Positions 10,686 through 56,033 of a stretch of DNA of 64,000 nt are shown piece by piece. The notes beneath the pieces were generated by a model. That model saw only the letters and a program-made list of their open reading frames with translations, was not told the DNA's origin and ran no database searches. The translations under genes and the position numbers were made by a program. The first letter of the stretch is position 1. Each line of letters opens with the position of its first letter. Where the stretch lies: the NCBI GenBank assembly GCA_963848135.1, contig CAWKCK010000002.1, positions 509,684-573,683 of the forward strand. Direction: 5' to 3'. This stretch comes from an uncultured delta proteobacterium (GTDB taxonomy: Bacteria; Desulfobacterota; Desulfobacteria; Desulfobacterales; SG8-13).

Positions 10686-10952
10686 TCAACGTCGGCGTCG
10701 CTGCATCCCGCCGATCAGGGCACCACCGACAGCGCCGGCGGCGGCACCTTTCCCGGCATCTCCTGCAATCCCCCCGACGATAGCCCCCTTGGCGGCCCCT
10801 CGATCCGTGTCACCAACCAGTTCCCCGTCGTTCCGGTCAGCAGCAACAGGGTACGGAATCCTTTTCCAGCTTTGAACCTTGAACCCCTGAATCATGGCCC
10901 CCAGAGATACCAAGTTCTGCGTTCCCGGTTCAGAGTAGAAGGGTGTATTCAT
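10686..10952 (-). CDS. glycine-zipper small protein (hypothetical)
   Basis: C-terminal GAIVGGIAGDAGKGAAAGAVGGALIGGM glycine zipper followed by RRRR. Start chosen at MNTPFY (10952). The overlapping + strand ORF looks like nonsense. Confidence 0.4.
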   Translation of the reverse strand: MNTPFYSEPGTQNLVSLGAMIQGFKVQSWKRIPYPVAADRNDGELVGDTDRGAAKGAIVGGIAGDAGKGAAAGAVGGALIGGMQRRRR

Positions 10953-12682: not shown

Positions 12683-14683
12683 TTACCTTCTGGCCTCTTC
12701 TATGGTAACACCCTCGGGCAGAATCCCCTGGGCGCGCGATAACTCGTGCAACGCGATATTATAGTCCGTGATCGCACGATACATACTGCGGCTCGTTAAC
12801 GCATACAGATCCTGAGCACGCAGAAGTTCCAGGTTGCTCGTCTGGCCAATATCGAATCGGGCGAATTCTCCTTCCACCACTTTTTCGGCTGCTTCCCGCG
12901 CCAATCGGGTGGCTTCGATTTCGCCAATGGTGGTTGCTAAACGCTGAAATACTTGTTTTACGTCCAGTCTGATATCATCCTCGAGGCGTTTCACCTGTGC
13001 ATCGGCCTGTAAGCGCTCAAGCTTTTTCCTCCGGTATTGGGCATTGACCGACCGGTTGCCGATCGCCCACGTAAAATTGACACCGACCTCCCAAATATCG
13101 TCCTGGTTCAGTGAGACATCGTCTACCGCCTCACCAAAATCTTGTCCATAACCCGTCAGACCGTAACGCCCGAAAGCGTCGAGCTTCGGAAGACGCAGGT
13201 GCGCGGCCAGCGCTTCATCAGCCTCAGAAATCCTGAACTCCTGCTTGGCTTTCTGAATCTCCGGACGGTACTTGAGAGCGGTTTCAATGGCTTCCATTTC
13301 GTCCAGGTTAATCGGCGCTGTCTGCGGTGGTTCAATGGGGATGACCTCATAGTCCGAATTGATTCGCAACTGATTCCAATTCAAGAGTAGTTTTAGCCGA
13401 TCCATAGCCACCTGAAATTCCTCCTGAGATCGTAACAGGTTGCTGCGGCGCACTTCGACATTGCTGCGTGCGCGTGCGACATCCAACTGTTGTGTGATGC
13501 CCCTGGCAAGACGCTCGGATTCACGGCGATGGACCTCTTCGGCCATCTCGAGGTTCTGCCGGTTGACCGCAATCAGCTCTCTGAACTGATAGAGTTTCCA
13601 GTAGACCTGGGCAACCTTGATCGCGACCTCGATGACTTTCTGACGAAAATCCTCATTAGAAATACTCTCCTGGTAATTGGCGATTTTGATGGCAGTCTTT
13701 TCTTTTTTTGCACCCAAATTATTCAATAGCGGTTGCCGTACTTCGAGGGTTGGAGAAAAAACGTGTTTGTAAACCCGATCGAATTCAGCATTGTTCAGAT
13801 CGCCATATCGAGTTTCAAGATAGGCTGACACACTTCCCCCTGTCGCAAACGGTTTTCTGATGCCGGTCCTGGTGTTCCCCCGATCTTCGGTAACTATATC
13901 AACCACGCTGGATTCAAGGTTCGGATCGCGGCGAAGTGTCATGTCAGAGAACAGCAGCGGATCGTATACCGCTTGGGCGTCTTTGACATCTTCCTGCGCT
14001 TGTTGCGGTCCGTAGGCAACAACACCGATTTCCCGGTTCCCTTCCAGGCTGTAGCGGATGGCATCGATAAGGGACAGCTGGACGGGTGTCATTTTTGTCA
14101 CCGCACCCTTGAACGACTCGGGTCGGGATCCGGAATTCGGCGCTTGTTTCATAGCGGCAATGGGTGGAGATTCTGCTGGCCTCACCGGGGAATCTTCTGA
14201 AACCTGACCGGATTCGGGGATTTCTACCAGTGCCCTCTTTTCTCCTGTCTTCAGATCAGCAGTAAAAATATAATCCCCATTTTCGCTCAATTTCTTGAGC
14301 ATGTATTCATCGACAACATCCTTCTGCACCAGGTGCGCAGCGGCTTGGCGGGCCTCTTCCCTATTCGCGTAGTTACCGATATAGACGCGATACCATTTTC
14401 CCTTCCCATTTATATCCTCACGCCGGCAAAACGGGTCGCACCCCTTATCTCTAAGACGTGAGAAACCCTTTTCGACTTCTGGAAGCGTTTTATAGGCGGC
14501 CACCTGGATAGTAAACCGCTCTCCCATCGGCTGTGACTGGCCATCGCCGATATCACCCACGATGCCGGCATTTGACACGAGGTGATCGGCCTCGGCATTC
14601 ACAACGCAAACATTGCCCAAGAGAATGAGAACAGTAAATAGGCCCGATATGAGATTTTTATGCATGCCCAGCATGTAATTCAT
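12683..14683 (-). CDS. TolC-family outer-membrane factor with N-terminal SPOR domain
   Basis: I place the start at MNYMLGMHKNLISGLFTVLILLGNVCVVNAEA (ATG 14683, 10 nt after the upstream stop); the track ORF start 14878 would overlap the SecA-like gene. SPOR-like FTIQVAAYKTLPEVEKGFSRLRDKG...WYRVYIGNYANREEARQAA. The rest is two OEP-type coiled-coil/beta repeats. Confidence 0.85.
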   Translation of the reverse strand: MNYMLGMHKNLISGLFTVLILLGNVCVVNAEADHLVSNAGIVGDIGDGQSQPMGERFTIQVAAYKTLPEVEKGFSRLRDKGCDPFCRREDINGKGKWYRVYIGNYANREEARQAAAHLVQKDVVDEYMLKKLSENGDYIFTADLKTGEKRALVEIPESGQVSEDSPVRPAESPPIAAMKQAPNSGSRPESFKGAVTKMTPVQLSLIDAIRYSLEGNREIGVVAYGPQQAQEDVKDAQAVYDPLLFSDMTLRRDPNLESSVVDIVTEDRGNTRTGIRKPFATGGSVSAYLETRYGDLNNAEFDRVYKHVFSPTLEVRQPLLNNLGAKKEKTAIKIANYQESISNEDFRQKVIEVAIKVAQVYWKLYQFRELIAVNRQNLEMAEEVHRRESERLARGITQQLDVARARSNVEVRRSNLLRSQEEFQVAMDRLKLLLNWNQLRINSDYEVIPIEPPQTAPINLDEMEAIETALKYRPEIQKAKQEFRISEADEALAAHLRLPKLDAFGRYGLTGYGQDFGEAVDDVSLNQDDIWEVGVNFTWAIGNRSVNAQYRRKKLERLQADAQVKRLEDDIRLDVKQVFQRLATTIGEIEATRLAREAAEKVVEGEFARFDIGQTSNLELLRAQDLYALTSRSMYRAITDYNIALHELSRAQGILPEGVTIEEARR

Positions 14684-14693
14684 TTTTCCCCAT

Positions 14694-16682
14694 CTAAATG
14701 TCATTGGCTGCAAATCCAAGGTGTTGGTCAAGCCAGTTGTCTGCGGAGAGAACATCCCTTCGCATTCGGAAGGAAATACGTTCGGCGCGGCACTGTAGTG
14801 CGTCAGCCAAACGCCGCCATAAAATCGATGATATCTCCCTGTTATTATAACAAAACAATCGCCTAAGGGCAAATGCAATCATACGGGTATGCTTCTGAAT
14901 GAGTTCGTCTTCCAGGCTGATGAAAGCCTGTGCGCTCCCGGGATCGCCCTGTCGGGAACAGCGGCCGAAGAGCTGACGGTCAATGCGCCGGGCATCGAAA
15001 CGTTCGGTGGCGATGACATGCAAGCCCCCCAATTCCGCTACCCCAGAACCCAGACGGATGTCCGTTCCACGACCGGCCATGTTCGTGGAAACGGTTATGC
15101 GGCCCTTTTTACCGGCGCCGGCAATAACCTGGGCTTCAGACGATTGCCGCATAGCATTCAGCAGCCGGTGCGGCAAACCGGTGGCTTTCAGCTGGTCACT
15201 CAAGTATTCACTTTCCCGAATGCCGCCCGTGCCAACCAGAATCGGGCGCCCGATCCGGTGAACGGCGTCAATCTCTGCGACCACAGCCTTCCACTTGTCC
15301 GCAGCCGTCGTGAACACACGATCCGGCTTGACTATCCGGCGGCAGGGACGATGGGTCGGGATAGGAATCACCGGCAATCGATAGATCCCCCACAATTCCG
15401 TCTGTGCTTCGGCCACCGTACCCGACATTCCGGACAGTTTCCGATAGAGGCGGAAAAATCGCTGGAAGCTGATTCTGGCGTATGTTTCTTTGGGAAGGTT
15501 TATTTCGAGCCCTTCCTTGGCTTCGACCGCCTGGTGAAGCCCATCGCGCCAGGTTCGGTCGGGCATGAGTCTTCCGGTGAACTCGTCGACAATGACCACC
15601 TTGTCCTCATCGACGACGTACTGCTTGTCCCGGATAAAGAACGCCACGGCGGAAAGGGCTTGTGAAACCAATTCTTCCCGGCGCCGCCGGCCGGCCCACA
15701 ATCCCCCAAGGGGTGCTGCCATCTCTGCCAGGCGTTGTCTGCCGGCCGGAGTCAGATGGACGTCGCGATAGCGGCGGTCAATCCGAAAATCGGTCGCAGG
15801 ATCCAGTGCACCGGCTAACAGCGCTGCCTGTTTGTAGGCTTGCATGTGTTCTTGATTGGGCGCATCTCCCGAAATCAGCAACGGGGTCACCGCATCATCG
15901 ATGAACACGGAATCAGCCTCGTCGACAATAGCGCACTCCAGCCCGCGCAGGACCAACCGGTCAACTCGAGCCCCGCGGCTGCCAGTCATCTTTGCGAGTA
16001 GCACCGACGGCAACCCCTGAGAGTGGCCAAGAAGAAGGCGGTCACGCAGAAAATCAGCGGCAACCTCTTTGTTGGTGCAGTAGGTAATGTGCGCATTATA
16101 GGCCTGCTTGCGTTCAGCCGGTTCCATTCCCTGGGTAATACACCCCACGGTCAGACCACAAAACCGATAGATGGCCATCATTAATTCGGCGTCCCGCTCG
16201 GCGAGGTAATCATTGGCCGTAATGACGTGACAACCGCGCCCCCGCCAGCCGGCAAGCACCGCCGGCATCGTGGCCGCCAGGGTCTTTCCTTCCCCGGTGG
16301 CCATCTCCGCGACGCAACCGGCTTCCAGGGCCAGCGCAGCAGCGATCTGCTCCCGATAAGGCCGCAGTCCCACTGTCCTCGCGGCAACTTCGCAAACGAT
16401 TGCAAAGGCCAAATAGCCATCTTCCGCGGTATTCCGGCCCAGGAGGAATCGATCGCGCAAGGGATCCATAAGATCACGCAGCTTGCGGTCTGAGGCGTGA
16501 AGAATATCCTTCTCCATTTCTATAATGTTGTCTGCTTGGCGAAGAAAACGATCCGGACTGCGCCTTAACCGACCGGCAAAGCCGGCAGCCTGATGCCACA
16601 GGGCATCCAGCCCGCGGGGCGGTTCGTCACTTTCCAGGCGCTGCGAAAGCATGCGCCATGTGGTGCTGGCCACACTCTCCAT
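14694..16682 (-). CDS. SecA-family ATPase, truncated accessory type (motor domains + PPXD, no C-terminal wing/CTL)
   Basis: 662 aa. MATGEGKTLAA (Walker A; SecA has MRTGEGKTL), ITYCTNKEVAADFLRDRL, IVDEADSVFIDDAVTPLLISG (DEAD box), WRDGLHQAVEAKEGLEI, TNMAGRGTDI, RRIDRQLFGRCSRQGDPGS. The protein ends about 70 aa after NBD2. Confidence 0.9.
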   Translation of the reverse strand: MESVASTTWRMLSQRLESDEPPRGLDALWHQAAGFAGRLRRSPDRFLRQADNIIEMEKDILHASDRKLRDLMDPLRDRFLLGRNTAEDGYLAFAIVCEVAARTVGLRPYREQIAAALALEAGCVAEMATGEGKTLAATMPAVLAGWRGRGCHVITANDYLAERDAELMMAIYRFCGLTVGCITQGMEPAERKQAYNAHITYCTNKEVAADFLRDRLLLGHSQGLPSVLLAKMTGSRGARVDRLVLRGLECAIVDEADSVFIDDAVTPLLISGDAPNQEHMQAYKQAALLAGALDPATDFRIDRRYRDVHLTPAGRQRLAEMAAPLGGLWAGRRRREELVSQALSAVAFFIRDKQYVVDEDKVVIVDEFTGRLMPDRTWRDGLHQAVEAKEGLEINLPKETYARISFQRFFRLYRKLSGMSGTVAEAQTELWGIYRLPVIPIPTHRPCRRIVKPDRVFTTAADKWKAVVAEIDAVHRIGRPILVGTGGIRESEYLSDQLKATGLPHRLLNAMRQSSEAQVIAGAGKKGRITVSTNMAGRGTDIRLGSGVAELGGLHVIATERFDARRIDRQLFGRCSRQGDPGSAQAFISLEDELIQKHTRMIAFALRRLFCYNNREISSILWRRLADALQCRAERISFRMRRDVLSADNWLDQHLGFAANDI

Positions 16683-16683
16683 C

Positions 16684-18861
16684 TTAGACCTCGAATCTCT
16701 TCTGGAAAAGCTGAAGCAGAGAACGCCAACCTTGCAAGAAAAGCGGTTTGGGAGATGTCTCGAACCGCAAGGCCATGGTTTGTCCGGGACGCAGTGTCAT
16801 TGATTCAGGAATCGACGGTAACACCAGTATCTCAAAAAAAGGTTCCGCCGCCTGTCTTCCGGTGGGATCTTCCAGGTCGGTACGTGTGGATCCACCGGCG
16901 GCATAGCCCAGCGCGGCGGATGGCAGCTTTTCCTGTCCGGCCGGAATAATCGTTTCGATTCGGCCGGCAAGCGCGATGTCCGGTCGGCCTTTGACCCTTA
17001 TATCGACTTGCGATTTAGCGTCCGCGAATAACCTCGAGGCGACTTTCTGGCTGGCAATAGCCCGAATACGCAATGCTTCCAGATTGGCGACCACGCCGAT
17101 ACGGTGGCCCTGTTCCAGATACATGGCCTTGATACGGTCGATGTCCGGTGCCACCCAGATCCCGGCTATGGGTGATCTAGGCGCCAAATTATCTATTTTA
17201 AGCTGTGTCCGCTCAATCTGTTCTTCCAGGGCCGTAATCTTTTCATCCATGATCTGGGCGGCAGCGGCTTCTTTGGTCTGGGCAGACTGGCGATTGACCT
17301 GAAGGCGGCGGTATTCGGCGAGAAGTTGATCCCGTTGCGCTTCCAATTCAGGACTGAATGCCCGGATCAATTCGGGTCCGTCCGATCCGATTCTGGCACC
17401 TGAATCCAGAAATTGTCGCACAAAACCGGCTGTCTTCACGTGTATGACAGCATAGTCACGCGGTTCCACCACCCCTTCGACCCGGCAGCGATCCGGCATA
17501 CGAACAAGCCCGAAAACAATGACAAGAAAACAAACAGCCAAGGCGGAGGTGCAAATCGCGCGTTCTCTGCACCGGACGAGTTCGCTGCTCGTCGCCAGGT
17601 AGTGCAGGAACTTCCCCAGTGGTAACACCACCCATCGGACGACCAGGATCGCCACCAGCAGCATGCCTATCGAAAAAAACATGCCCATTAGATAAAAAGC
17701 AATCGCTGCAACAATGACCACGCGACAGACCGTCGAAGCGATGGCGTAGAAGATCAACCACCCTTTTTCGCCGTCAGTGTGACTCGAATCGGAGGCCTTT
17801 TGCAGTCCCCACAGGTATCGTTTGATCAGGTAGCGGACGTACAGTTTCGATCGTGATTCGAGGTTGGGAATCTCTAACACATCCAAAAGGATGTAATACG
17901 CATCGTATCGAAGAAAAGGGTTTCCGTTGAACATCAGGGAAGAAATGCTGGCAATAAACATGACGTTATAGGCGATGGCATGAACCGTGGTCCCCTCGGC
18001 CGTGTGAACCCAAAGTACAGCGGCAATGGCGGCGATGACCAACTCGGCCAACATGCCGCCAGCGCCGACCACAATCCGTTGCCATTTATCTCGCAGCGCC
18101 CAGGCGCTTGAAGCATCCACATACGGCAATGGCGTGAAGACCAGGAAAGTCACGCCCATCTGGTGCACCTCGCCCCCGGCACCGGATTGTTGCCCGAAAT
18201 GTTTACACGAAAAGGCATGGCCCATCTCGTGGAACAATTTCACCAGGACAAGCGCCGCGTATAGCAGAGGCAGGTTCTCTGGGTTTAATATCCCCGAGGC
18301 TTTGGCTGTCAGCGCATCGACATGGCCACCGACAGACCACAGCCCAATGGCCATGATCCCCGTCCACAGGATCGCACCGTACACAGAAAACGCTTTCCCA
18401 ACCACACCAACCCACCGGTTCAGAAACTGGTCCGGATCCCACAACGGTATGCGGACGAAAAGCAGATTTCCAACCGCACCCTTCACCTCGCGCCAAACGC
18501 GTTTTTGGTGCCGCTTGAAGAGGGTTTCCGCGTCGGGGGCGATATTGCCATGCAATAGATTCGAGGAATGCAGCTGACACAGCAGCTGGATCACCTCGCC
18601 CTGGGTCGGTGCGGCATCGCCAAATTGATCCATGCAGATCTGCCACACCTGACTGACGGTGCGTCGTCCATCGAGCATTGAAGCAAAATGGTAAGCGGCG
18701 GCGTTCAGACGAAAGTAGCGGTTATTGACCGGATCCTGCAGAACGTACCATCTGACACCTCGGTAATGCTGTCGGCTGACATTAACCGTGGCCAGCAGTC
18801 TCGGCATGAGTTCCGACACGCGGTACCAGGATTCGCTGAATGTGGGTCGGTCAATCGTCAC
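16684..18861 (-). CDS. fusion protein: PqqD-like N-terminal domain + polytopic M50 (site-2-protease-like) metallopeptidase + C-terminal HlyD/MFP domain
   Basis: 725 aa, GTG start with GGGGG 6 nt upstream. HExxH as FHEMGHAF inside a TM helix; second S2P-type motif NGNPFLRYDAYY. N-terminal 90 aa resemble PqqD/RRE (YFRLNAAAYHFASMLDGRRTVSQVW). C-terminal coiled coil plus barrel-sandwich (RSPIAGIW). Confidence 0.8.
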   Translation of the reverse strand: MTIDRPTFSESWYRVSELMPRLLATVNVSRQHYRGVRWYVLQDPVNNRYFRLNAAAYHFASMLDGRRTVSQVWQICMDQFGDAAPTQGEVIQLLCQLHSSNLLHGNIAPDAETLFKRHQKRVWREVKGAVGNLLFVRIPLWDPDQFLNRWVGVVGKAFSVYGAILWTGIMAIGLWSVGGHVDALTAKASGILNPENLPLLYAALVLVKLFHEMGHAFSCKHFGQQSGAGGEVHQMGVTFLVFTPLPYVDASSAWALRDKWQRIVVGAGGMLAELVIAAIAAVLWVHTAEGTTVHAIAYNVMFIASISSLMFNGNPFLRYDAYYILLDVLEIPNLESRSKLYVRYLIKRYLWGLQKASDSSHTDGEKGWLIFYAIASTVCRVVIVAAIAFYLMGMFFSIGMLLVAILVVRWVVLPLGKFLHYLATSSELVRCRERAICTSALAVCFLVIVFGLVRMPDRCRVEGVVEPRDYAVIHVKTAGFVRQFLDSGARIGSDGPELIRAFSPELEAQRDQLLAEYRRLQVNRQSAQTKEAAAAQIMDEKITALEEQIERTQLKIDNLAPRSPIAGIWVAPDIDRIKAMYLEQGHRIGVVANLEALRIRAIASQKVASRLFADAKSQVDIRVKGRPDIALAGRIETIIPAGQEKLPSAALGYAAGGSTRTDLEDPTGRQAAEPFFEILVLPSIPESMTLRPGQTMALRFETSPKPLFLQGWRSLLQLFQKRFEV

Positions 18862-18873: not shown

Positions 18874-20772
18874 TTACACCCATAATTTCATTCGTAACCA
18901 GTTGACAAGGCGGTGGGAGGCGATCCAGAGGTAGGATTTTTTCCCGGCCGATATCCGGGCTTCGCCTTCCATGCCGGGCCGCATCCATTCCAGGTTTTCA
19001 AGAATACGGGCGCGCACCCTGAACACATTTTGGTTGTTCACCACCTCGGCGATGGGATTGATCCGCTCGATAACGAACCGAATTTTCTGATCGGGGTGGC
19101 CAACGGATGCCAACTCTCCCTCTTGCCCGGTGGCGACGTTTGCAATCGACGACTCCGGGACGTACAGCTCGGCCCTTAAGGAATCGATGGCGGCAATCTC
19201 AAACAGGACCTTACCCGTCTCGACTGGCGCACCGATCTGCTGCTTCAAATCCTCAGAAACCACCCAGCCGGTGATCGGCGATACCAGGGTTGCCTGTTCG
19301 ATTTTCTTTTCGATTAAACGGATCTCCGCCGCAACCTTGTCGCTCTGCGCCTGTGCGATCTGGGCTTCAGCCGTCTTCCGATCGCGCATCGATGCGGCCA
19401 TCTGCTTTTGATAACCCAACTGTTCGGCTTTCAGGGCGGCCAGTTTCAACCGGAGTTCAGAGGTCTCTAACGTCCCCAAAATAGCCTTACCGCCCTCAAC
19501 GCGATCTCCCGGCTCCACCGACACACTTTTGGTGAAGGTATCGAATGGCGCAACGACCACCTGTTGATTTTTGGCCTGCAACGCAAAAGAGGTTTTAATG
19601 CGGTAATCCCCTTTCGCTGTTGTAAAAAACACTGCCATCAAAAAGACCAGTACGGCGCCCAACTTTACCCAGGTGTGCTCATGCCCCAGCAGCACCCCCA
19701 CCTGCTGTCGGGCCCGAGAGGCCATGCGCGCGCCGAACCACCGATCACTTCGACTCAGTTCCAATAGCCGGGGTGCACAGAGATCACCGATCAACCTGAG
19801 GGTTTCTATTTCCGCCAATCGGTTAAAGGGCTGCTCGGGCGAACGCTCTAATGTCATCACTGCCGTTACGTTCCCGTCTTCGCGTATCGGCAGGCTGAGT
19901 ATACTGGAGGGTCCATGACATGCCGATAACTTCGCGGATCCACGATCGGCATACATCGCAGCGTCATCTTTGGGATGGATCACCTCCACATCCTGGTCCA
20001 GGCATTCCTCCATCGTGGCTTCAATCGCCTGAACCACATCCATTTCGCGGCCGAATGAATCCGTATGGCTCATCGCCCGAACCCGCACGCTGCGGCCATC
20101 GAGAAGGCCAAGACTGACCCGGCTGCAACCCAGTCGGGTTGAAATCTCGTTGCACAACGCCATGGCCGCACTCAAAAACCGCTTTGACTTGTTGACCGTA
20201 TCCAGTACTTCAAGGACCCGCCGCAGACGATTCATGGCCTCATGGTGCATTTTCGTTGTCAGGCGCATCTCATGGTGATCCAGCAGAAGAGCCGTCGTTT
20301 CCAGGCGGGCATGACTCAGTAGTAGCTGATAATGGGAACTTGCCTTGATTCGGAAGGCCGCGGCAGCACGAAGGGCGCCGTCGTTTTGAATCGGAATGAC
20401 AACCAGGTAATTCTGATATTTATCACTCCCTTCCGATGCGGAATTTTCTTTTACAATGACCGTTTGGCCACTTTTCATGACCCTTCGAAACGGTTTTTCG
20501 GCTTTACTGATCCATTTCAGGGAATTGCCGTTATTATTCGGGGTTGGGTATGCGGCCAGGGCCTCTATGCGATTGGCTTCCCCAAGGCGTAGCACCACCC
20601 CGGCATCACATTTGGCCAGGTGGCACTGGGTGGAGAGTAACTCGGATAGGAATCGGTCCGGCGGCCCGTCGTATGAGAACAATTCAGATAGAGCCTTTGC
20701 GTTGAAAGGCCCTGCCGGTCTTTGATTGTCCACAGATCTGCCCGCCGTGGATCCAGCCATAAATAATTCCAT
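18874..20772 (-). CDS. GAF-GAF-TM-HlyD membrane fusion protein
   Basis: 632 aa. Two cytoplasmic GAF-like segments, one TM helix (WVKLGAVLVFLMAVFFTTA), then an HlyD-type lipoyl/coiled-coil/beta-barrel region (LVSPITGWV). Confidence 0.8.
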   Translation of the reverse strand: MELFMAGSTAGRSVDNQRPAGPFNAKALSELFSYDGPPDRFLSELLSTQCHLAKCDAGVVLRLGEANRIEALAAYPTPNNNGNSLKWISKAEKPFRRVMKSGQTVIVKENSASEGSDKYQNYLVVIPIQNDGALRAAAAFRIKASSHYQLLLSHARLETTALLLDHHEMRLTTKMHHEAMNRLRRVLEVLDTVNKSKRFLSAAMALCNEISTRLGCSRVSLGLLDGRSVRVRAMSHTDSFGREMDVVQAIEATMEECLDQDVEVIHPKDDAAMYADRGSAKLSACHGPSSILSLPIREDGNVTAVMTLERSPEQPFNRLAEIETLRLIGDLCAPRLLELSRSDRWFGARMASRARQQVGVLLGHEHTWVKLGAVLVFLMAVFFTTAKGDYRIKTSFALQAKNQQVVVAPFDTFTKSVSVEPGDRVEGGKAILGTLETSELRLKLAALKAEQLGYQKQMAASMRDRKTAEAQIAQAQSDKVAAEIRLIEKKIEQATLVSPITGWVVSEDLKQQIGAPVETGKVLFEIAAIDSLRAELYVPESSIANVATGQEGELASVGHPDQKIRFVIERINPIAEVVNNQNVFRVRARILENLEWMRPGMEGEARISAGKKSYLWIASHRLVNWLRMKLWV

Positions 20773-20859: not shown

Positions 20860-21717
20860 TCACTCAGACTTCAATTGTCCGAGCTCTTTATTTTCCATTT
20901 CAGGAGAGAAGCCGACGGCAACACGTTCACCTGCCGGTCGCTTCAGAGGGTTGGGCACTTCGATGCGAACCCGCAGAGTATCGCTTGCGGCATCCGCAAC
21001 GGCCGAGATGTTGATGATCCGAGCATTCGGCGATGCATCAACGGGGTTTCCGGGAAAGGTAACCCAGGCATTCTGCCCCATTTCCAATTTGCCGGCTTGT
21101 TCCATCGGGACCGGCACATCGATCCAGAGAGGATCGTTTTGAACCAGTCGGATGACAGGTCCAAGTGAACCAATGGATTCCCCCACCTCGACGGTAACAT
21201 CCTCAACACGCCCAGCAATGGGGGCAACAAGGCGCATTTGCGCCAACTGGCTCTGGGCGTGATCGTATCGGCGCCGATACTGTTCTTGCTCCAAAACTGC
21301 CGACTTCAACGAAAGCTCTGCAATTCGGACGTTTAATTTCAAATGCTCAACTTCCCAGTCACTCGCTGCTCCTTTGGCCTGGGCCTGCGCGACCTTTTTC
21401 AAATCGATCCTTTTCTGTGCCAATTCCGCCTTGGCGGCAAGGATTTTGGTGCGGTCTTCCGAAAGCATTTTTAACTGCTGACTCTGGATTCTTTCGGGTT
21501 CATCGTAGAGGCGAACGAGCAGCTGATCCTTTTCGATAATGTGGCCTTCCTTGACCAGGACATCGGATACCCTGCCGGGCACCACGAAGGACAGGGTGAT
21601 ATCGGCATTGGGTGTCGTAATGCCCTGTAACGTCTCAGCGCCGGCAGAAACGTGGGCACACATCAGCGCACACAAAAGCCCTGCCCTAAAAATAGCGGAA
21701 CCAAATCTGGAAATCAT
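20860..21717 (-). CDS. periplasmic adaptor (MFP / HlyD_D23-like) with cleavable signal peptide
   Basis: 285 aa. Signal peptide MISRFGSAIFRAGLLCALMCAHVSAGA. Biotinyl-lipoyl-like hairpin (VAPIAGRVEDV) and a short coiled coil. Confidence 0.8.
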   Translation of the reverse strand: MISRFGSAIFRAGLLCALMCAHVSAGAETLQGITTPNADITLSFVVPGRVSDVLVKEGHIIEKDQLLVRLYDEPERIQSQQLKMLSEDRTKILAAKAELAQKRIDLKKVAQAQAKGAASDWEVEHLKLNVRIAELSLKSAVLEQEQYRRRYDHAQSQLAQMRLVAPIAGRVEDVTVEVGESIGSLGPVIRLVQNDPLWIDVPVPMEQAGKLEMGQNAWVTFPGNPVDASPNARIINISAVADAASDTLRVRIEVPNPLKRPAGERVAVGFSPEMENKELGQLKSE

Positions 21718-21805
21718 GGCCTTACCTTTCTTTCCAAAAAATGATGATCTCTGTTCGGTGTGATATTGAAATTCGGGTTAATAAAAAACAGTCCTCTTGG
21801 ACTTA

Positions 21806-22615: not shown

Positions 22616-24418
22616 TCACTCGCTCTTCGGGGTCGAGGAAGAAAACATCTCGGAAATTTTCTCCGGCGGTACGGGTGGGCTGAACAGATAACCCTGGTAA
22701 AGGTCGCACCCCTCTTCTTGCAGGAACTTCAATTGGGGCTTTGTCTCCACACCTTCGGCAACCGTGCGTAGATTCATATTCCGAGACAGATAAATTAAAG
22801 AAGAAACCAGGGCACGGCTCTTGGTGTCCTCGAACAAACTCACAAAAAAGGAGCGATCGATTTTCAGCTCATCCAATGGCAGTCTTCTGAGATAACTCAA
22901 AGAAGAATAGCCGGTGCCGAAATCGTCAATAGACAATTGGAGACCAAGGCCTTTCAAACGATTCATTATTTCAATTTTGCTTTCGATATCCTCCAGCAAC
23001 ATGCTTTCGGTGACTTCAAGTGTCAGCAATTCGGGAAATATACCGCTGTTATGGACGATTTGTTTGAAAGTAGCCAAAATTTCCTGGTTCTGAAATTGTG
23101 CGGTAGACAAATTCACCGCCATACTGATCGGGGGCATACCGGTCTGCTGCCATTCAGACAGCTGGTTACAGGCCTGAGCCAAAACCCATTCCCCGATTGG
23201 GACCATCAGCCCGGTTTCCTCGGCGATGGGAATAAATTTGCTCGGTGGGATTACGCCATGTTCAGGGGTGTTCCATCGCAGCAATGCTTCCACTCCGGTA
23301 ATGGCATTCGTTTTAACATCCAACTTGGGCTGGTAGTACAGTAACAACTCATCCCGGTCGATCGCTTTGCGGAGCCTGGCTTCAAGATTGAGGCGCTTCT
23401 GGTACTGGGTGTTTATTTGTCGGGAGGAAAATTGAAAAGAGTCACCACCATGATTCTTGGCATAATCTTTGGCACTCGAGGCCAGCTGCAACATTGTCAC
23501 GCTGTCGACATCTTCTGTGGGGTACGTCGCAATACCGATGCTGGCAGTCAGGTAGATTTCGTTGTTATCCACAAGCAGCATCGATCGAATCGATTCCAAA
23601 ATACATTCGGCAACCAGCGCGGCATCGCTCTCGTTAGAAAGCCGATGCAGAAGCAGGGTAAAAACACCACCGTCTAAATGAAACAGATTAACAGGGACAT
23701 ACTCATCGATTTCATGATGCCCGAGCAAATCGAGGCCCTTAACGACATCCTTGAAGCGCGCGGTCAACTGTCGCAGAATTTCGTCACCCGCAAAAAGCCC
23801 CAGAGTATCACTGACCTTGTCAAATTGGTCCAACTCGATACTCAACAATGCCAGGTTATCTCTATTCTGTTTAACCGACTTCAAGCCCCATTCCAGACAT
23901 TCCATAAAAAGGTGCCTGTTGGGCAGTTTGGTCAGCGGGTCGTAAAAAGCGAGGCGATCCATATACGCCTTGGCGGCCAGGGTATTGCGAACGCGCAGCC
24001 GGAGTTCACTCGGATCAACCGGCTTGCCAAGGAAATCAGTGGCACCAAGGTCCAGTGCACGCAATTTATCTTTATTGTCTGATGATGCCGTCAATATGAT
24101 GACAGGCAAGTGTTTGAGTTTAGGATGCTCCCGCACTTGTTGTAGTACATCGAATCCCGACAGCTTCGGCATCATCAGATCGAGCAGAAGAAGATCGGGA
24201 CGCTGTTGCTCGAGCGTGGCCATCGCTTGGCTGGAATCTTCAATCAAGACGAAGTTGCTGTACCCCGCCTCCTCCAGAAATGCCTGCACGACTTCCATGT
24301 TGATGGGTTCGTCATCAACGATAACAATGTTTGCATTGAGCATTTGCTCAAACTCCCCCTGAAGTTCTGAGGTTTCATTCCACTCCGTCATATTCTTTTC
24401 TGCATTCGCTGTCTGCAT
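22616..24418 (-). CDS. response regulator with degenerate GGDEF and intact EAL domain (c-di-GMP phosphodiesterase type)
   Basis: 600 aa. REC ([10 protein letters not shown]...[13 protein letters not shown]). The GGDEF position reads DGGVF. EAL motifs are intact ([27 protein letters not shown]). Confidence 0.9.
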
Positions 24419-24650: not shown

Positions 24651-27596
24651 TCAGGCATGTCTACCGGCCGCCACTCGTTTGACCACCTCTGCGCCTTGTG
24701 CCATTACCGGCGGCATGATCGCCTTTGACAGGTGTTTTAACCGCTCGAGCATCTGCCCGGCCTGTTCCACCTGCGCCGATTTGGCGAAAATCTCGAGTTT
24801 TGCGGCCGGCTCCGTGAAATCATCGAAACCAACCGTACCGCCGGCGCCTTTCAACCAATGCGCGATTAGGGCCAATTCTTCCAGGTTTTTATTTTCCCAA
24901 GCCGTTTGCGCCCGCGCCATTTCTTCTTTGAGTTTATCGATAAACCGCAGAATAACTTTCTGGAAGCGCGGAATGGTCCCTAATCGCGAGATAACACGTT
25001 TTTCTGTTGCCGAATTTGACTGGGCTGTTTGACGGTCTGTGACCGGTAATATTTCTTGGGGCGGATCGCCAGCGGTGGTAGACGTCTCGGTTGGTTCAGC
25101 TCCGGGAATGACCAGTCGAGAAACCAGTCCGCGTAATTCGTCCATGGTTTGCTGGATTTCGGCCTCACTTCCGCCCTCCTTTGCCAGTCTCTCGAGCTTG
25201 CCGGCCGGCGCAGTGAATTCATCAAAACCGACGCTGCCGCCAATCCCCTTCAACTTGTGTGCAAAAACCGCGACATCCTCGAGTTTTCCTTGCACTCGCG
25301 CCTGTTCCACTTCCGTTAGTTGATCTTTTAAATGCGCGATAAATCGGACAATCAAATCGCGGAACTTCCCATTACAACCGGGCATTTTGGAATAGATGGG
25401 AGAACCAGCGGCAGATGGAGGCGCATTCATGTGGCTATCCGTTGGCCTATCGGTTGTCAGGGCTGCATCGGATCCCGTTTCTACCGCCACCTTCTGGCCC
25501 CCCAGAAGAGCCCCCATTTGCGCCATAAAACGATCGATATCGATGGGTTTGGAGCAATATCCCGAAAACCCAGCATCCAGGCACTCCTGCTCAAAACCTT
25601 TCATGGCATTGGCCGTTAACGCGATAATCTCCGTATTCAACCCTTGTTTGCGAAGCTGTTTGGTGGCGGTAAAGCCATCCATGACAGGCATGTTAACATC
25701 CATCAGAATGACGTCATAGTGTCCGGCAACAGCTTTTTCCACGCCGATTTGACCGTTTTCAGCCTCGTCTACCATCAGGCCAGCTTCTTGGAGCAGGAGA
25801 CTGAGCAGTTCCCGGTTTTCGGCGCCGTCATCCACGATCAGAACGCGGCCCTCGCTAAACTTCCAGTGCGTCTGTTCGTCCTCGCTGAGCACCTGCGCCT
25901 CTTCCTCCACGGCCTCCGGCTGTAAAAATTGCATCCCTTCCACATCGCCTGTCCCCAGGGTCACCCTGAAGGTACTCCCATTTCCCAATCGGCTTTCGAC
26001 CGTTAAGTCTCCGCCCAAAGCCTGTGCGAACCTGCGGCTGATGGAAAGTCCCAGACCCGTTCCCCCAAAACGACGCGTTACCGCAGAGTCGGCCTGGGTG
26101 AAAGGGTCAAAAACGGATTCTAATTTATCCTCGGGGATACCTATGCCGGTATCGGTAATTTCGACAAACAACAGGGGCCCGGATGCGGATTTTTCAAAAC
26201 GGCAGTTTACGGTGACATGGCCTTGCTCGGTAAATTTGATGGCGTTACCCACCAGGTTGAAGATGATCTGGCGAAACCGCGCCGGGTCGGTCAGGATTTG
26301 TCGCGGCAGTGCGCTTTGCGCCTTGAATTTGAGCGGAATCCCTTTTTCCTGAGCCTTAACACCCAGGACCTGGAAAACCTCGTGTATGATCCGGTGGGGT
26401 TCGGCCCAGACCGCCTCGATGTCCAACCGGCCGGACTCAACCTTGGACAAATCCAGAATATCGTTTATCAGCTCGAGCAGGTTTTTACCGCTGGAGTGAA
26501 TCGTATCGAGATACCTGTGGCTGTCATCCTTGTTTTTACCGTAACCGCGCTTAAGAATCTCTGTAAAGCCGAGGATCGAATTCATGGGTGTGCGAATTTC
26601 ATGGCTCATGTTTGCCAGAAAAGCACTTTTGGCCTGGTTGGCGGCTTCCGCCTGTTCCTTGGATTGGCGCAGCTCGATCTCTTTTTTCTCGAGTTGCGTG
26701 ATGTCATCAAAACTAACCAATACGCCGGCATATTTACCGCCGGCACCGAGCACCGGAGAGCAATTGATGCTGAATGTCAACCATCCCTTGTCGGCATGAC
26801 GGAGACGCAAAATCCGGTTTGTCTGTGCTTCGCCATTGCTGAGGGCCTGAACCCAAGGACGGGCTGACTTTTCGATTATATTCCCTTTAACGTCCATCCA
26901 CGGCAGATCGCCTGACCGGTAGCCGAGAAGATCTTCCGGTGCCCTGCCGAGCATGGCTGCAAATGACTTGTTGGCCAGTACAATCTGCTCCTTGTGATCC
27001 AGCACCAGCAGCCCGCCTGCCAACGTGTCGAGTGCGGAACGCACCCTTCCGGGAATGGCCTTGGACGGATCCAGCTGGCGTAGCACTTTACCGAGATAGA
27101 AGTAAAAGGCGATGAAGCAAAGTACTCCCATGAACAGCACAATCCGAAGAATCGGATTGTGGATCATCCCCTTGAGGCCACCCGCGTTGAGCGCTTTAAA
27201 ACGCAACTCCAGCTGTCCCCACTTGTGCTCACCAGACCATATGGGAACCAGCACTTGCGTATCCTTGGAATATTCACCGCCCATGTCCTGCCAGTGATCA
27301 GCATGATGCGCCGTGGCGACCAAAGCGCCGCCATCCTTCCGTCGCAGGGCCAGCGACAGCAGGTCGGGGTTTCTATTGGTCATCAGATTGAAATCGGTTT
27401 TCAAGCGCTGAACATCTGCTGACAGCACCGCCGACGTGCTGTGCACCGCAATGGCCTCAGCCAAAACAGTACGGCCATCCCGCACGGCGCTCTCTCTATC
27501 CGGAACAATGCCCAGCAAAAAGGCAAGCATGATAAGGCTGACAGTTAAGCCGACGAGCCCTATGACGACCCGGTCTTTGACGTTCAATCTTTTCAT
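24651..27596 (-). CDS. membrane hybrid sensor histidine kinase: TM-periplasmic-TM sensor, PAS, HisKA, HATPase, REC, Hpt, Hpt
   Basis: 981 aa. H-box SHEIRTPMNSILGF, G-boxes DTGIGI / GGTGLGLSI, REC VLIVDDGAENRE...ILMDVNMPVMDG, two Hpt motifs (HKLKGIGGSVG and HWLKGAGGTVG). The start ATG overlaps the giant-gene stop (ATGA). Confidence 0.9.
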   Translation of the reverse strand: MKRLNVKDRVVIGLVGLTVSLIMLAFLLGIVPDRESAVRDGRTVLAEAIAVHSTSAVLSADVQRLKTDFNLMTNRNPDLLSLALRRKDGGALVATAHHADHWQDMGGEYSKDTQVLVPIWSGEHKWGQLELRFKALNAGGLKGMIHNPILRIVLFMGVLCFIAFYFYLGKVLRQLDPSKAIPGRVRSALDTLAGGLLVLDHKEQIVLANKSFAAMLGRAPEDLLGYRSGDLPWMDVKGNIIEKSARPWVQALSNGEAQTNRILRLRHADKGWLTFSINCSPVLGAGGKYAGVLVSFDDITQLEKKEIELRQSKEQAEAANQAKSAFLANMSHEIRTPMNSILGFTEILKRGYGKNKDDSHRYLDTIHSSGKNLLELINDILDLSKVESGRLDIEAVWAEPHRIIHEVFQVLGVKAQEKGIPLKFKAQSALPRQILTDPARFRQIIFNLVGNAIKFTEQGHVTVNCRFEKSASGPLLFVEITDTGIGIPEDKLESVFDPFTQADSAVTRRFGGTGLGLSISRRFAQALGGDLTVESRLGNGSTFRVTLGTGDVEGMQFLQPEAVEEEAQVLSEDEQTHWKFSEGRVLIVDDGAENRELLSLLLQEAGLMVDEAENGQIGVEKAVAGHYDVILMDVNMPVMDGFTATKQLRKQGLNTEIIALTANAMKGFEQECLDAGFSGYCSKPIDIDRFMAQMGALLGGQKVAVETGSDAALTTDRPTDSHMNAPPSAAGSPIYSKMPGCNGKFRDLIVRFIAHLKDQLTEVEQARVQGKLEDVAVFAHKLKGIGGSVGFDEFTAPAGKLERLAKEGGSEAEIQQTMDELRGLVSRLVIPGAEPTETSTTAGDPPQEILPVTDRQTAQSNSATEKRVISRLGTIPRFQKVILRFIDKLKEEMARAQTAWENKNLEELALIAHWLKGAGGTVGFDDFTEPAAKLEIFAKSAQVEQAGQMLERLKHLSKAIMPPVMAQGAEVVKRVAAGRHA

Positions 27597-30500
27597 ACCC
27601 TATCTTTCTCCTGATCGGTAACTGATGATTCTTCTGCCGATTTCTTTTTCGGTTCAGTTTTTCGTGGCGCCTGGTCCAATATGGTTTCCAGGGATTCATC
27701 ATCGTCGGGGTGGTCGCCATCTCTTTTTCTTGCCAGTACCGGCAGCGGATCCAAGATCTGCCAAGCCGGAATAGAGGACAGCAGCGTACTCAGCAACATA
27801 CCGCCCCGAATAAGCCAGACAACATAACCCACGGAAAGACCAACCGAGGATACAATCGCAGATCCGAGATACACTTTGTTTATCTGATTGTCATTGGCGA
27901 TCTCTTCTTTGATATCATCCAGAGAATTAACCATATTGTGATAGGCGCGCGCCGTCATCGTATTATTAAAGCTGATCTGTCGTGCCGCCCGATAGAGGCC
28001 GGGGTCTGCAGCTGTATCTTTCTGAGGCCCCCCCGCCCGGTTAGATAACCGCGCCGCATTGTCATTGACGTCTGCAACCGCCGCTCGATTCTGAGTAAAG
28101 CTGCGGAAGACGTTAATCAGGAACGGTGTCCGCGCAGGCGATGATCCGCGTTGTCGCGGGGCGCTTTCTTCGGAAGGACCCGGGTTCACCGGTGGTGCTT
28201 CCACGGCTTCCGAGATATTTTCCACTGTAGCCTCGTCCGGCTCTACGGCGGGCTCGCTGACCTCAGAATCAGTCGCTGTCTCCGGTTCTGCCGGGTCACT
28301 ACTGTCTGTAGGAAGGGAACTTTCCGTCGGGAGCGTTGGCGGTGGTACCACGGTGATCACGGAGACGACCGCGCCGCTTTGCTGGGCGACGGAAATGCCG
28401 TCTTCGGAGGATTCTACCGTAAAGCTGCCATTAATGATGGACGTGCCTGTCGGGGTGAAACGGACACCCACCTGACCCTGGGCAAAGGAGATATAGTCGC
28501 CGTTGTGGATCGGGGTGACACCGTCTGACAGATACAGGGTGCCGTTCGTGATGTTGGAAATCCGGAAGTAAGTCACCTCGGCGCCATCGTCGGGATTGCG
28601 GTCAATGACGATCAGGCCCGACTGAACCGTTGCCGGGGTTATAATTCCACTCACCTGCGGGGTGTCACCCACCGGGGTTGCCGTAATGATCTTTATCCCC
28701 GAAATGGGGGCAGCCACGCCATCGTCCACGCTAGCATCGATTGTAAAGCTGTTGTCATAGTTTATCGATGGCGTGAAAACCACTCCTGCCAACAGGGCAT
28801 TCACATCGGCAATGGGTCCGCTGGCCGTCCAAGTGCCTCCGGAAAAGTTTGCGGTCACCCCCCCTGAGGTACCGGTGCTCAGGCTGCCGGCTGCCGGATC
28901 GGAAAGAGTCAGGGTTACGGTGACATTGGCGCTGTCTATATCAGCGATGACGATGTCTGAAAGATCGAGGGGAATGTCTTCGGTATAGGTCTCTGCCGCA
29001 TTCAAGTTGGCGGCGGTCGGGGCAACATTGAGATGCGCCACCGGCGCCGTGCCCGCGCTGGTCAGGCTTTCAAGAGTTCCCCTATCATCAGTATAATTAG
29101 CGGTTACAGAGATCACTTTACCTTCATCAACCAGTACTGTGGTATAGGTGCTCGAGGTGGCTCCACTGATAATTACTCCATCATGAAACCACTGGTAAGT
29201 GATCGCACCAGTCGCCCCGTCAGGATCGTTCACGATCGCTGTCAATGTATCACCCACGGTAGGCGTTAAATTGTCGATAGCAACAGTCCCCACATCGTTG
29301 GTGTTAGCCACCGTGATATCAAACTGCTCCTCCACCCAGGCGTTGCTCGCATCGGTCGCCCGCACCGTAATCGTCACCGTGCCCACATCGGCGTTTGCCG
29401 GCATGCCGCTAAAGGTTCGCGTGCCTGCGGTAAACGCGAGCCAACTTGGCAGACCCAAGGCCGTATACGTTAAGCTGTCGCCCGCATCCACATCATTGAA
29501 GGTGTTGGCCGCAAACTGGAAACTAAATGGCGTATCCTCTGTGGCGCTTTGATCGGGGATCACATTGGCCACCGCCGGCGCATCGTTCACCGGCGTGATA
29601 TCCAAAGTCGCGCTGCCGGCCACCGTGTCGGTCCCGTCGGTAATCGTGTAGGTAAAGCTCACTGAGGTGTCGTCATCGGCCGCCGGTGTGTAGTCCCAGG
29701 TACCGTTGCCGTTATCCACCAAGGCACCGTTTCCGACACTGATCGCAAGACCGGTCGCTGTCAGACTGTCACCCTCGATATCATTGGCATTGACTAAAAG
29801 ATCGGCCTGGGTGATCAACCGCGCGCCGCTGTCTTCTCCGATCGCTGCCAGAATTACCGGGCTGGTCGTGGGCGCATCGTTCACCGGCGTGATATCCAAA
29901 GTCGCGCTGCCGGCCACCGTGTCGGTCGCGTCGGTAATCGTGTAGGTAAAGCTCACTGAGGTGTCGTCATCGGCCGCCGGTGTGTAGTCCCAGGTACCGT
30001 TGCCGTTATCCACCAAGGCACCGTTTCCGACACTGATCGCAAGACCGGTCGCTGTCAGACTGTCACCCTCGATATCATTGGCATTGACTAAAAGATCGGC
30101 CTGGGTGATCAACCGCGCGCCGCTGTCCTCACCGATCGCTGCCAGAGTTACCGGGCTGGTCGTGGGCGCATCGTTCACCGGCGTGATATCCAAAGTCGCG
30201 CTGCCGGCCACCGTGTCGGTCCCGTCGGTAATCGTGTAGGTAAAGCTCACTGAGGTGTCGTCATCGGCCGCCGGTGTGTAGTCCCAGGTACCGTTGCCGT
30301 TATCCACCAAGGCACCGTTTCCGACACTGATCGCAAGACCGGTCGCTGTCAGACTGTCACCCTCGATATCATTGGCATTGACTAAAAGATCGGCCTGGGT
30401 GATCAACCGCGCGCCGCTGTCTTCTCCGATCGCTGCCAGAATTACCGGGCTGGTCGTGGGCGCATCGTTCACCGGCGTGATATCCAAAGTCGCGCTGCCG

Positions 30501-56000: not shown

Positions 56001-56033
56001 TACCTTTTTCCGCATTCCCTCACCGACGAACAC
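41043..56033 (-). CDS. giant surface protein 2 (4996 aa): LEPR-XLL-type leader, DUF4347, four cadherin/CSLREA-like/beta-helix/Ig supermodules, LamG-like domain, 10 He_PIG/cadherin-like repeats, Ig-like repeats, Pro/Glu linker, C-terminal membrane anchor
   Basis: Single ORF. The track start is GTG 56033; ATG 56015 ([11 protein letters not shown]..., preceded by GGTGAGGGA) is an equally good start. N-terminus ...[17 protein letters not shown]. DUF4347 block ([15 protein letters not shown]...HFITHG..GQINLG...GGDWDLEF). C-terminus ...[38 protein letters not shown] plus an acidic tail. Confidence 0.9.
   Translation of the reverse strand: [4996 protein letters not shown]
42590..45440 (-). repeat. 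10 tandem 285-bp (95-aa) He_PIG / dystroglycan-type cadherin-like repeats, diverged
   Basis: Period 285 bp (shadow ORFs at 42856, 43141, 43426, 43711, 44281, 45136). Unit [95 protein letters not shown]. Copies differ at many synonymous and some amino-acid positions. Confidence 0.85.

Follow-up and report, generated by a model that had tools for sequence, protein, structure and literature searches.

Introduction

Bacterial protein secretion is sorted into a few numbered systems. Here, we examine a short SecA-like ATPase gene, and the exporter-like operon in which it lies, in a 64,000-nucleotide (nt) stretch of DNA from an uncultured delta proteobacterium (GenBank assembly GCA_963848135.1, contig CAWKCK010000002.1, positions 509,684 to 573,683; hereafter, the window). 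The module to which this gene belongs was described by Kamneva, Poudel, and Ward (PLoS One 2015; PMC4452313) under the name "secondary SecA_DEAD domain proteins", with neighbors that resemble those of type I secretion. These proteins have lost the wing-scaffold domain completely or in part and form a clade not related to the canonical SecA that the same genomes encode, both kinds coexisting in complete genomes. Their conserved locus contains M50, GAF-HlyD, and HlyD/biotin-lipoyl genes and sometimes OEP. The SecA_DEAD protein was proposed to be an ATPase that replaces the ABC transporter, with the M50 protein as a possible inner-membrane pore, and the biological role was stated to be completely unknown. 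The published table includes Desulfococcus oleovorans (Dole_0618-0621) and Desulfomicrobium baculatum, and the listing covers the cultured hosts Methylobacterium extorquens AM1, Ruegeria pomeroyi DSS-3, and Bordetella avium 197N. In the S2 Table, a SapC-family protein is frequent in loci from Alpha-, Beta-, and Gammaproteobacteria, several of which also carry the conserved hypothetical protein NOG277429 (PMC4452313).

The window gene is a further member of this published module and differs from it in nothing of kind: the protein has SecA_DEAD and PPXD without SecA_SW, and M50-HlyD, GAF-HlyD, and adaptor genes are co-located with it. We propose, with a probability of roughly 55%, that the SecA-like protein is the cytoplasmic ATPase motor of a dedicated TolC-dependent, envelope-spanning exporter. 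Several features described below are absent from the 2015 main text and the available supplements, namely the PqqD/RRE domain on the M50 protein, the retention of the long scaffold helix and the polypeptide clamp, LEPR-XLL/DUF4347 giants as candidate cargo, the C-terminal module that these giants share, the fusion of the TolC-like protein to a SPOR or OmpA domain, and the synteny with cyclic di-GMP (c-di-GMP) genes.

The SecA-like Protein Retains the Motor and the Polypeptide Clamp

The gene is a single open reading frame (ORF) on the minus strand that runs from an ATG at 16682 to a stop at 14694-14696 and encodes 662 amino acids (aa). A plus-strand reading of 14694-16682 was rejected because its translation is riddled with stops.

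14694..16682, minus strand: short SecA-like ATPase, 662 aa, with NBD1, PPXD, NBD2, and a long scaffold helix
14718-14825 (aa 620-655), minus strand: long scaffold helix in the AlphaFold model
16278-16304 (aa 127-135), minus strand: Walker A motif, MATGEGKTL
15912-15926 (aa 253-257), minus strand: DEAD motif, VDEAD
present in the translation, minus strand: motor motif WRDGLHQAVEAKEG
aa 533-542, minus strand: TNMAGRGTDI
aa 569-582, minus strand: RQLFGRCSRQGDPG
15870-15887 (aa 266-271), minus strand: clamp element TPLLIS
15543-15560 (aa 375-380), minus strand: clamp element DRTWRD
15468-15485 (aa 400-405), minus strand: clamp element TYARIS

An earlier reading of this DNA, made from the letters alone (the sequence-only reading), had described a 662-aa accessory SecA-family ATPase with all of the SecA motor motifs and a PPXD-like insert. 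The ORF has this length, every motor motif quoted is found in its translation, and the insert matches the Pfam model SecA_PP_bind at 96 bits, alongside matches to SecA_DEAD (315 bits) and P-loop_SecA (185 bits).

In Bacillus subtilis SecA, the polypeptide clamp is formed by the PP loop (residues 326-331) and TC-beta (219-224 and 351-356) (PMC9926265), and the clamp elements of the short SecA were mapped from these positions. Among 35 close homologues, the Walker A, DEAD, and TNMAGRGTDI motifs, the arginine-finger stretch, and the clamp elements vary little or not at all, and in a wider set of 139 representatives, reaching down to about 40% identity, motor motifs and clamp elements alike remain conserved. 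Judged by this conservation, the motor and the clamp are under selection. Because the clamp elements show the same conservation as the motor motifs, the protein is probably a polypeptide-handling motor and not a bare ATPase.

Two further segments set the protein apart from B. subtilis SecA. An N-terminal extension of about 27 aa lies in the region of aa 1-39 (nt 16565-16682), where conservation of W9, R10, D26, and W29 is confined to close homologues. An insertion of about 20 aa, modeled with low confidence, falls just before the DEAD motif (aa 216-245, nt 15948-16037). These two segments may be partner-docking elements.

The Short SecA Ends inside the Long Scaffold Helix

Alignment with phmmer matched the SecA-like protein to residues 13-605 of B. 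subtilis SecA and 24-612 of Clostridioides difficile SecA2 (CdSecA2). In CdSecA2, NBD2 spans residues 396-577, the helical scaffold domain's long helix 578-625, the helical wing domain 626-705, and the two-helix finger 706-781 (PMC7503281). The SecA-like protein, placed on this scale, stops at about residue 620, within the long scaffold helix, and so retains some 90% of it. Its end lies about 43 aa past NBD2 by the CdSecA2 boundaries and about 80 aa past the last motor motif. The AlphaFold model (pLDDT 77.7, from 35 homologues) also shows the long helix, at residues 620-655, and superposes best on B. subtilis SecA, with a TM value of 0.80.

No Pfam match to SecA_SW (wing/scaffold) was detected in the protein even at E ≤ 10, and two canonical-length SecAs run as controls scored 159 and 200 bits. 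The SEC-C zinc/SecB-binding tail (PF02810) gave no match either, the protein ending at residue 662. Given the missing SecA_SW match, the positive controls, and an alignment that ends in the long helix, the wing domain and the two-helix finger/IRA1 are absent, as is the C-terminal tail.

The sequence-only reading had inferred the loss of the wing, the two-helix finger, and the C-terminal tail, and Pfam, the structure alignment, and the model bear this out, with no intact two-helix finger in the alignment to SecA structures. Its wording needs some correction, however. The scaffold that it called lacking survives as most of the long helix, with only the wing, finger, and tail gone, and the stop is early as stated but falls nearer to NBD2 than the proposed distance of about 70 aa. 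A motor "without its SecY-docking half" is an apt description of the lost finger and wing but is overstated, because the retained PPXD, NBD2, and long helix also contact SecY in SecA (PMC7503281). The idea that this motor feeds a different conduit is supported, both by the missing finger and wing and by homologues that are not scattered (see below). Canonical SecA without IRA1 shows preprotein-independent ATPase activity (PMC3101351). The loss of IRA1 here implies that partner proteins may now regulate the motor.

The retained surfaces bear on a possible two-step route, in which the SecA2-like motor would dock to the housekeeping SecYEG and bring the giant adhesins into the periplasm, and the M50-HlyD protein, GAF-HlyD protein, adaptor, and TolC-like channel would then carry the substrate from the periplasm to the surface. 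MacAB-TolC, which takes up periplasmic substrates, provides the model for such a route. The SecY-contacting elements are not only retained but conserved (PMC7503281), recent structures place the driving force in the clamp and motor instead of the finger (PMC9926265), and Gram-positive SecA2 proteins with a reduced wing work with SecYEG (PMC7503281, PMC4452313). We nevertheless regard this route as rather unlikely. The SecY-inserting two-helix finger, the wing, and the lipid/SecB-binding tail are all missing, the leaders of the candidate cargo do not have the hydrophobic core of Sec signal peptides, and neither secY2 nor asp genes occur within the 64-kb window. In addition, the conserved 1-nt coupling to a polytopic membrane protein argues for a dedicated membrane partner.

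The Short Form Is Conserved as a Family

The 120 clusters closest to the SecA-like protein (61-100% identity) are almost all 652-662 aa long, and in a second set of 120 clusters, collected around a gammaproteobacterial member, almost all are 662-666 aa. A HMMER search that covered 1.84 billion representatives yielded at least 138 short clusters at 50% identity: 138 of the best 150 representatives at this level measure 630-700 aa, and canonical-length SecAs appear only at the bottom of these 150, at about 465 bits versus 795 for the top match. As these lengths indicate, the short form is a family trait. On length and score grounds, the window protein belongs to a short-SecA clade distinct from canonical SecA.

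Consistent scores were obtained with curated models. The NCBIfam equivalogs for housekeeping SecA, NF009538 and TIGR00963, are missed (604 bits versus a cutoff of 814, and 601.5 versus 800), as are all of the SecA2 models: TIGR03714 (485.6 versus 930), TIGR04221 (454.2 versus 725), TIGR04397 (547.5 versus 1085), and NF012136 (406.6 versus 1100). No curated NCBIfam family matches the protein above its cutoff, and the 64-kb window holds no second secA.

A functionless, truncated or decaying copy of secA would also be shorter than the housekeeping gene, which is the sole point in favor of such an artefact. We rule this out for practical purposes, given a length conserved in hundreds of clusters across phyla, invariant catalytic motifs, and a conserved operon position and spacing.

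Several NCBI records name members of this family "prepilin peptidase" (P0026-P0028, P0037, P0089, P0396, P0480, and P0490), which looks like a propagating annotation error. One SecA-like protein of 761 aa (P0262) continues after its NBD2 region into a 4'-phosphopantetheinyl transferase domain and may be a fusion or a chimera.

The SecA-like Gene Lies in a Conserved Exporter-like Operon

Ten minus-strand genes follow one another in a single direction. They encode a 4996-aa giant, a PAS-GGDEF-HD protein, a 3420-aa giant, a hybrid histidine kinase, a REC-GGDEF-EAL protein, a 285-aa adaptor, GAF-HlyD, PqqD-M50-HlyD, the SecA-like protein, and a SPOR-TolC-like channel. Apart from the giants and the M50 protein, which are treated below, the neighbors of the SecA-like gene are as follows.

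12683..14683, minus strand: TolC-family outer-membrane channel with an N-terminal SPOR peptidoglycan-binding domain
18874..20772, minus strand: GAF-HlyD, 632 aa, with a cytoplasmic GAF region, a predicted transmembrane segment at aa 368-386, and a periplasmic adaptor domain
20860..21717, minus strand: periplasmic RND_mfp-type adaptor, 285 aa, with an N-terminal signal peptide
22616..24418, minus strand: REC-GGDEF-EAL c-di-GMP turnover protein, upstream of the exporter genes
24651..27596, minus strand: hybrid histidine kinase, PAS-HisKA-HATPase-REC-Hpt, between the 3420-aa giant (candidate cargo 1) and the exporter genes
38551..40992, minus strand: PAS-GGDEF-HD(-GYP-type) protein, between the two giant genes

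The junction between the M50-HlyD and SecA-like genes reads TAA-G-ATG. The SecA-like start thus lies 1 nt past the M50-HlyD stop, as the sequence-only reading had stated, and the SecA-like gene is translationally coupled to the RRE-M50-HlyD gene. The channel gene likely starts at ATG 14683 (MNYML...), 10 nt past the SecA-like stop, with an alternative ATG at 14704. At the other end of the exporter genes, the TGA of the 3420-aa giant overlaps the ATG of the histidine kinase (ATGA, 27593-27596); this overlap and the GGDEF, EAL, and HD neighbors suggest second-messenger control of adhesin export. The exporter cluster contains no ABC transporter gene, the sole ABC_tran gene of the window being MlaF-like (60228-60986) and situated beside MlaE and MlaD.

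This arrangement is widely conserved. GAF-HlyD, M50-HlyD, and SecA-like genes stand in the same order in all nine genome loci seeded on the SecA-like protein, which come from Desulfobacterales, Phycisphaeraceae, other Planctomycetota, Opitutaceae, and Gammaproteobacteria. As a reverse test, 80 metagenomic loci were seeded on the M50-HlyD protein. The SecA-like gene is the next gene in 68 of the 71 such loci with downstream room (80 of 83 loci overall), with a spacing of 1 nt in 55 of the 68, and GAF-HlyD lies directly upstream of M50-HlyD in all 65 seeded loci with upstream room (76 of 76 overall). The homologues are thus not scattered; a scattered distribution would have counted against the sequence-only reading. 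The module ranges over Desulfobacterota, Planctomycetota, Verrucomicrobiota, and Gammaproteobacteria. From kinase to channel, the gene order is unchanged in the complete genome of Desulfosarcina alkanivorans, and the Olavius symbiont Delta 3 and uncultured Gammaproteobacteria also carry the cluster. The positions of the kinase and the REC-GGDEF-EAL gene are syntenic in Desulfobacterota, and a periplasmic adaptor of the 285-aa type is found near the module in many loci.

Other observations concern the surroundings of these genes. Between the EAL gene and the first adaptor gene lies a gap of 898 nt (21718-22615) without a convincing ORF; its equivalent in D. alkanivorans is about 255 nt, and the gap may serve the exporter genes as a promoter or regulatory region. 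Small leader-like ORFs were not found in or around the cluster, where counts of promoter and terminator sites are at shuffle background. The N-terminal domain of the TolC-like channel is SPOR in the window and in D. alkanivorans and OmpA in two other Desulfobacterota (L095, 12142-14250; L097, 12170-14116), and such SPOR and OmpA fusions look unusual for an outer-membrane factor. In three of four annotated gammaproteobacterial loci (L093, L094, and L098, about 4200-6700), two HDOD genes fill the upstream position.

An RRE-like Domain Is Fused to the M50-HlyD Protein

The gene directly upstream of the SecA-like gene encodes a fusion of a domain resembling the RRE, the recognition element of ribosomally synthesized and post-translationally modified peptides (RiPPs), with M50 and HlyD parts.

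16684..18861, minus strand: RRE-M50-HlyD fusion, 725 aa
18553-18804 (aa 20-103), minus strand: PqqD/RRE-like domain
aa 144-451 of the fusion: polytopic M50 site-2-protease-like membrane domain, with HEMGH at aa 211 and NPFLRYD at aa 314
aa 458-725 of the fusion: periplasmic MacA/AcrA-like adaptor, by structure comparison

The Pfam PqqD model matches this protein at 34.6 bits (cutoff 23.4), and a match at the same position is found in four of five divergent orthologues. The AlphaFold model (pLDDT 78) shows three strands and then three helices at the N-terminus, followed downstream by about eight membrane helices and a MacA/MexA/AcrA-like adaptor. Across 33 M50-HlyD homologues, the HExxH and NPxxxxD motifs are invariant. 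The best NCBIfam match, covering aa 21-413, is the daptide RRE-site-2-protease leader peptidase NF041824 (E = 5e-42). The daptide enzyme is an RRE fused N-terminally to a site-2 protease (PMC10036551).

This relationship raises the possibility of a peptide exporter, in which a RiPP- or bacteriocin-like leader peptide would be matured by the RRE-M50 part and exported via HlyD and TolC, the SecA-like ATPase energizing the process or unfolding the substrate and the giants being merely co-regulated. The resemblance of the N-terminal 413 aa to the daptide and YydH/LiaK peptidases (PMC10036551) would fit, as would the label "putative peptide zinc metalloprotease" that JGI gives to homologues, the loci in which no giant gene is nearby, and the SapC-family and other small conserved neighbors in Proteobacteria (PMC4452313 table). 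The equivalog cutoffs are missed widely, however (144.3 versus 300 bits for the daptide model NF041824 and 39.1 versus 225 for the YydH/LiaK model NF058609), and no conserved short precursor ORF or modification enzyme was found in or beside the cluster, the 898-nt gap included. A SecA clamp is suited to long unfolded polypeptides, and an LEPR-type motif recurs at the N-termini of neighboring giants across phyla. Taken together, we judge export of a peptide to be distinctly unlikely.

Giant Adhesins Are Candidate Cargo

The two giant genes of the window encode adhesin-like proteins that share both ends.

27593..37855, minus strand: candidate cargo 1, 3420 aa, with an LEPR-XLL leader, DUF4347, CBM96, cadherin-like repeats, and a C-terminal hydrophobic module
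37739-37762 (aa 32-39), minus strand: cargo 1 leader, LEPRLLLS
27731-27877, minus strand: cargo 1 C-terminal module
41043..56033, minus strand: candidate cargo 2, 4996 aa, with an LEPR-XLL leader, DUF4347, He_PIG/cadherin/Big_9 repeats, a beta-helix, and a C-terminal module
55923-55946 (aa 30-37), minus strand: cargo 2 leader
41106-41252, minus strand: cargo 2 C-terminal module

Both proteins start with a basic stretch followed by FE(P/A)LEPRLLLSGSWGAG, and the NCBIfam LEPR-XLL model NF012209 recognizes them at 23.1 and 25.9 bits (cutoff 17). Neither has HemolysinCabind/RTX repeats, and no classical Sec signal peptide was found in them, the leaders being without the typical hydrophobic core. 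A strict regular expression for the motif gives only 16 matches in the 2.05 million six-frame residues of the loci, 10 of which lie no more than 40 residues from the start of large ORFs that flank the module. These leader-bearing ORFs occur in Phycisphaerae, Opitutaceae, Gammaproteobacteria, and metagenomic loci. Scored against the NF012209 cutoff, four of ten neighboring leaders pass, two fall just under, and four have variant motifs; the variants include LEERLLLT and, in Gammaproteobacteria, LEELEARQLFS.

Directly after the module, gammaproteobacterial contigs carry a giant with the leader and DUF4347 that measures 2,126 to more than 6,000 aa. In Olavius Delta 3, as in the window, the gene directly ahead of the kinase encodes a DUF4347-cadherin giant. 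Of 30 loci whose non-core flank reaches 8 kb or more, at least 18 carry a giant gene with the leader, DUF4347, or the C-terminal module (15 by automatic criteria, L061 by eye, and L095 and L096 from the gene table); such tallies are counts and not probabilities, because the loci are phylogenetically non-independent. We propose that the LEPR-XLL giants beside the module are its candidate cargo. In favor of this proposal, a signal at the N-terminus fits a SecA motor, whose polarity is N-to-C.

DUF4347 follows the leader in many candidate cargo proteins, at aa ~135-302 of the 3420-aa giant and aa ~153-321 of the 4996-aa giant. Its pattern ...H(I/F)I(T/S)HG... and then ...(F/I)YGCN... is reminiscent of a His/Cys peptidase dyad, and comparison with solved structures gave no meaningful match. 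The domain is also found outside the module context, for example, in Pseudomonas aeruginosa PA0256.

The shared C-terminal module consists of a hydrophobic stretch, the pattern GY-x-W-x-x-R-x-G-x-LL-x-S-x-x-S-x-x-P-x-W-x-x-x-DPLPVL, and an acidic tail. It is present in the window giants, in six Desulfobacterota-type loci (L023, L029, and L033-L036), and in one gammaproteobacterial locus (L099, 19142-19384), and no NCBIfam model matches it. The module could be a membrane anchor or a site-2-protease substrate.

This last feature is relevant to a signaling device without transport, in which the M50 protein would carry out regulated intramembrane proteolysis of an anti-sigma factor or of the adhesin anchor, with the SecA-like protein as unfoldase. 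Site-2 proteases commonly cleave transmembrane anti-sigma factors, and the conserved C-terminal hydrophobic hairpin of the giants would suit such a protease. GAF, GGDEF/EAL, HDOD, and histidine kinase genes are abundant around the module, and D. alkanivorans has a zf-HC2 anti-sigma/ECF sigma pair after the cluster. That pair, however, is not conserved and is absent from the window, and three HlyD-type adaptors together with a TolC-family channel are hard to explain in a system that transports nothing. We therefore consider pure signaling very unlikely.

A Proposed Dedicated Exporter

In the dedicated exporter that we favor, the cytoplasmic RRE-like domain would capture the LEPR-XLL leader of an unfolded giant adhesin, and the SecA-like clamp would thread the chain, from the N- to the C-terminus, into a channel formed by the membrane parts of M50-HlyD and GAF-HlyD instead of SecY. 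The three HlyD-type adaptors would span the periplasm and connect to the TolC-like channel. Either the leader or the C-terminal hydrophobic module would be trimmed at the M50 site; left untrimmed, the hydrophobic module would tether the adhesin to the cell. Output would be tuned by the c-di-GMP and two-component genes transcribed in the same direction. We infer the binding of the leader by the RRE, the M50 channel, the cleavage, the topology, and the direct contact between the SecA-like and membrane proteins. The fuller proposal, in which LEPR-XLL is the N-terminal export signal of a one-step giant-adhesin pathway that is read by the RRE, threaded by SecA through an M50/HlyD-TolC conduit, and processed by the site-2 protease, which would decide between release and tethering, is more tentative, and we place it somewhat below even odds.

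Several points weigh against the exporter. To our knowledge, M50 proteases have not been described as protein conduits. The PPXD, NBD2, and long helix that the protein retains are SecY-contacting surfaces and could permit docking to SecY. The PqqD scores are near the threshold. About 12 of the 30 well-flanked loci have no recognizable giant nearby, six of them ending before the expected position of the giant, and at L097, which comes from a complete genome, no such gene lies within 10 kb. A Vibrio LEPR-XLL giant is reported to have C-terminal RTX/serralysin domains and might therefore use a classical type I system. In three mutually related loci (L034-L036), no SecA-like gene stands between M50-HlyD and the channel gene, which follow each other directly (about 9600-10900). 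These loci keep the C-terminus of the giant, the kinase, adaptor, GAF-HlyD, M50-HlyD, and OEP genes; the motor gene has been either cleanly lost or moved elsewhere. The M50, SecA-like, and HlyD genes of M. extorquens AM1 are barely expressed in exponential growth (PMC4452313), and a literature search for SecA_DEAD found no experimental follow-up on the family.

If the proposal is correct, a Sec-family ATPase that works with HlyD and TolC proteins instead of SecY would constitute an additional secretion system, and the SecA motor would be detachable from its channel. Such a system would combine type-I-like outer parts, a Sec-family motor, and RiPP-style recognition with a polarity opposite to that of type I secretion. 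The family is large: beyond the clusters counted at 50% identity, hundreds of closer ones come from sediments, symbionts, and marine Gammaproteobacteria. The link to cargo gives the 2015 module a testable substrate and the orphan NCBI LEPR-XLL motif family a possible meaning, and it suggests how proteins of 2,000-6,000 residues could be exported in the absence of both a Sec signal peptide and a C-terminal signal of the type I kind. The RRE and cargo links make the role of the module directly testable, and the cultured hosts in the 2015 listing should make experiments practical (PMC4452313).

Comparison with Known Systems

With housekeeping SecA, the short protein shares the DEAD-type motor, PPXD, clamp, and long helix, at 41% identity to B. 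subtilis SecA. It differs in having no wing, finger/IRA1, or zinc-binding tail and in being encoded beside adaptor and TolC genes instead of sec genes. The SecA2 proteins of Gram-positive bacteria and mycobacteria are likewise second paralogues that serve a subset of substrates, and the wing domain of mycobacterial SecA2 is also reduced (PMC7503281). In contrast to the short protein, SecA2 keeps the two-helix finger and works with SecYEG or SecY2/Asp.

The type I secretion of giant adhesins is similar in its HlyD-family adaptors, its TolC-family channel, and the c-di-GMP genes alongside. Lap-type systems, which are type I adhesin systems under c-di-GMP control, are the general point of comparison. 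The present module, however, has three adaptor-type proteins and no ABC transporter. Its candidate signal lies at the N-terminus, whereas the RTX-type signal of classical type I substrates is C-terminal, and the polarity of threading would therefore be the reverse. The RiPP RRE-site-2 proteases (daptide; YydH/LiaK) share an N-terminal PqqD-like element and an HExxH membrane metalloprotease with the M50 protein of the window, which, unlike them, continues into a periplasmic adaptor, has a SecA-like ATPase coupled to it, and lacks precursor or tailoring genes.

The embedded SecA of Omnitrophota and Actinobacteria (bioRxiv 10.1101/2023.11.21.568195) also has SecA_DEAD and PPXD without wing/scaffold, is linked to giant surface proteins, and coexists with a normal SecA. 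In that case, SecA lies inside the giant itself and no link to HlyD or TolC is reported, whereas the window protein is free-standing at 662 aa. A 4930-aa protein with two SecA-like modules and five Fis-type HTH_8 repeats (P0380) is of the embedded kind. Finally, the engineered Escherichia coli SecA-N68 (PDB 5k9t) and the IRA1-deleted mutants are C-terminally truncated forms that, like the short SecA, keep the motor and PPXD. These are laboratory constructs unable to translocate, whereas the natural family has the long helix and dedicated partners.

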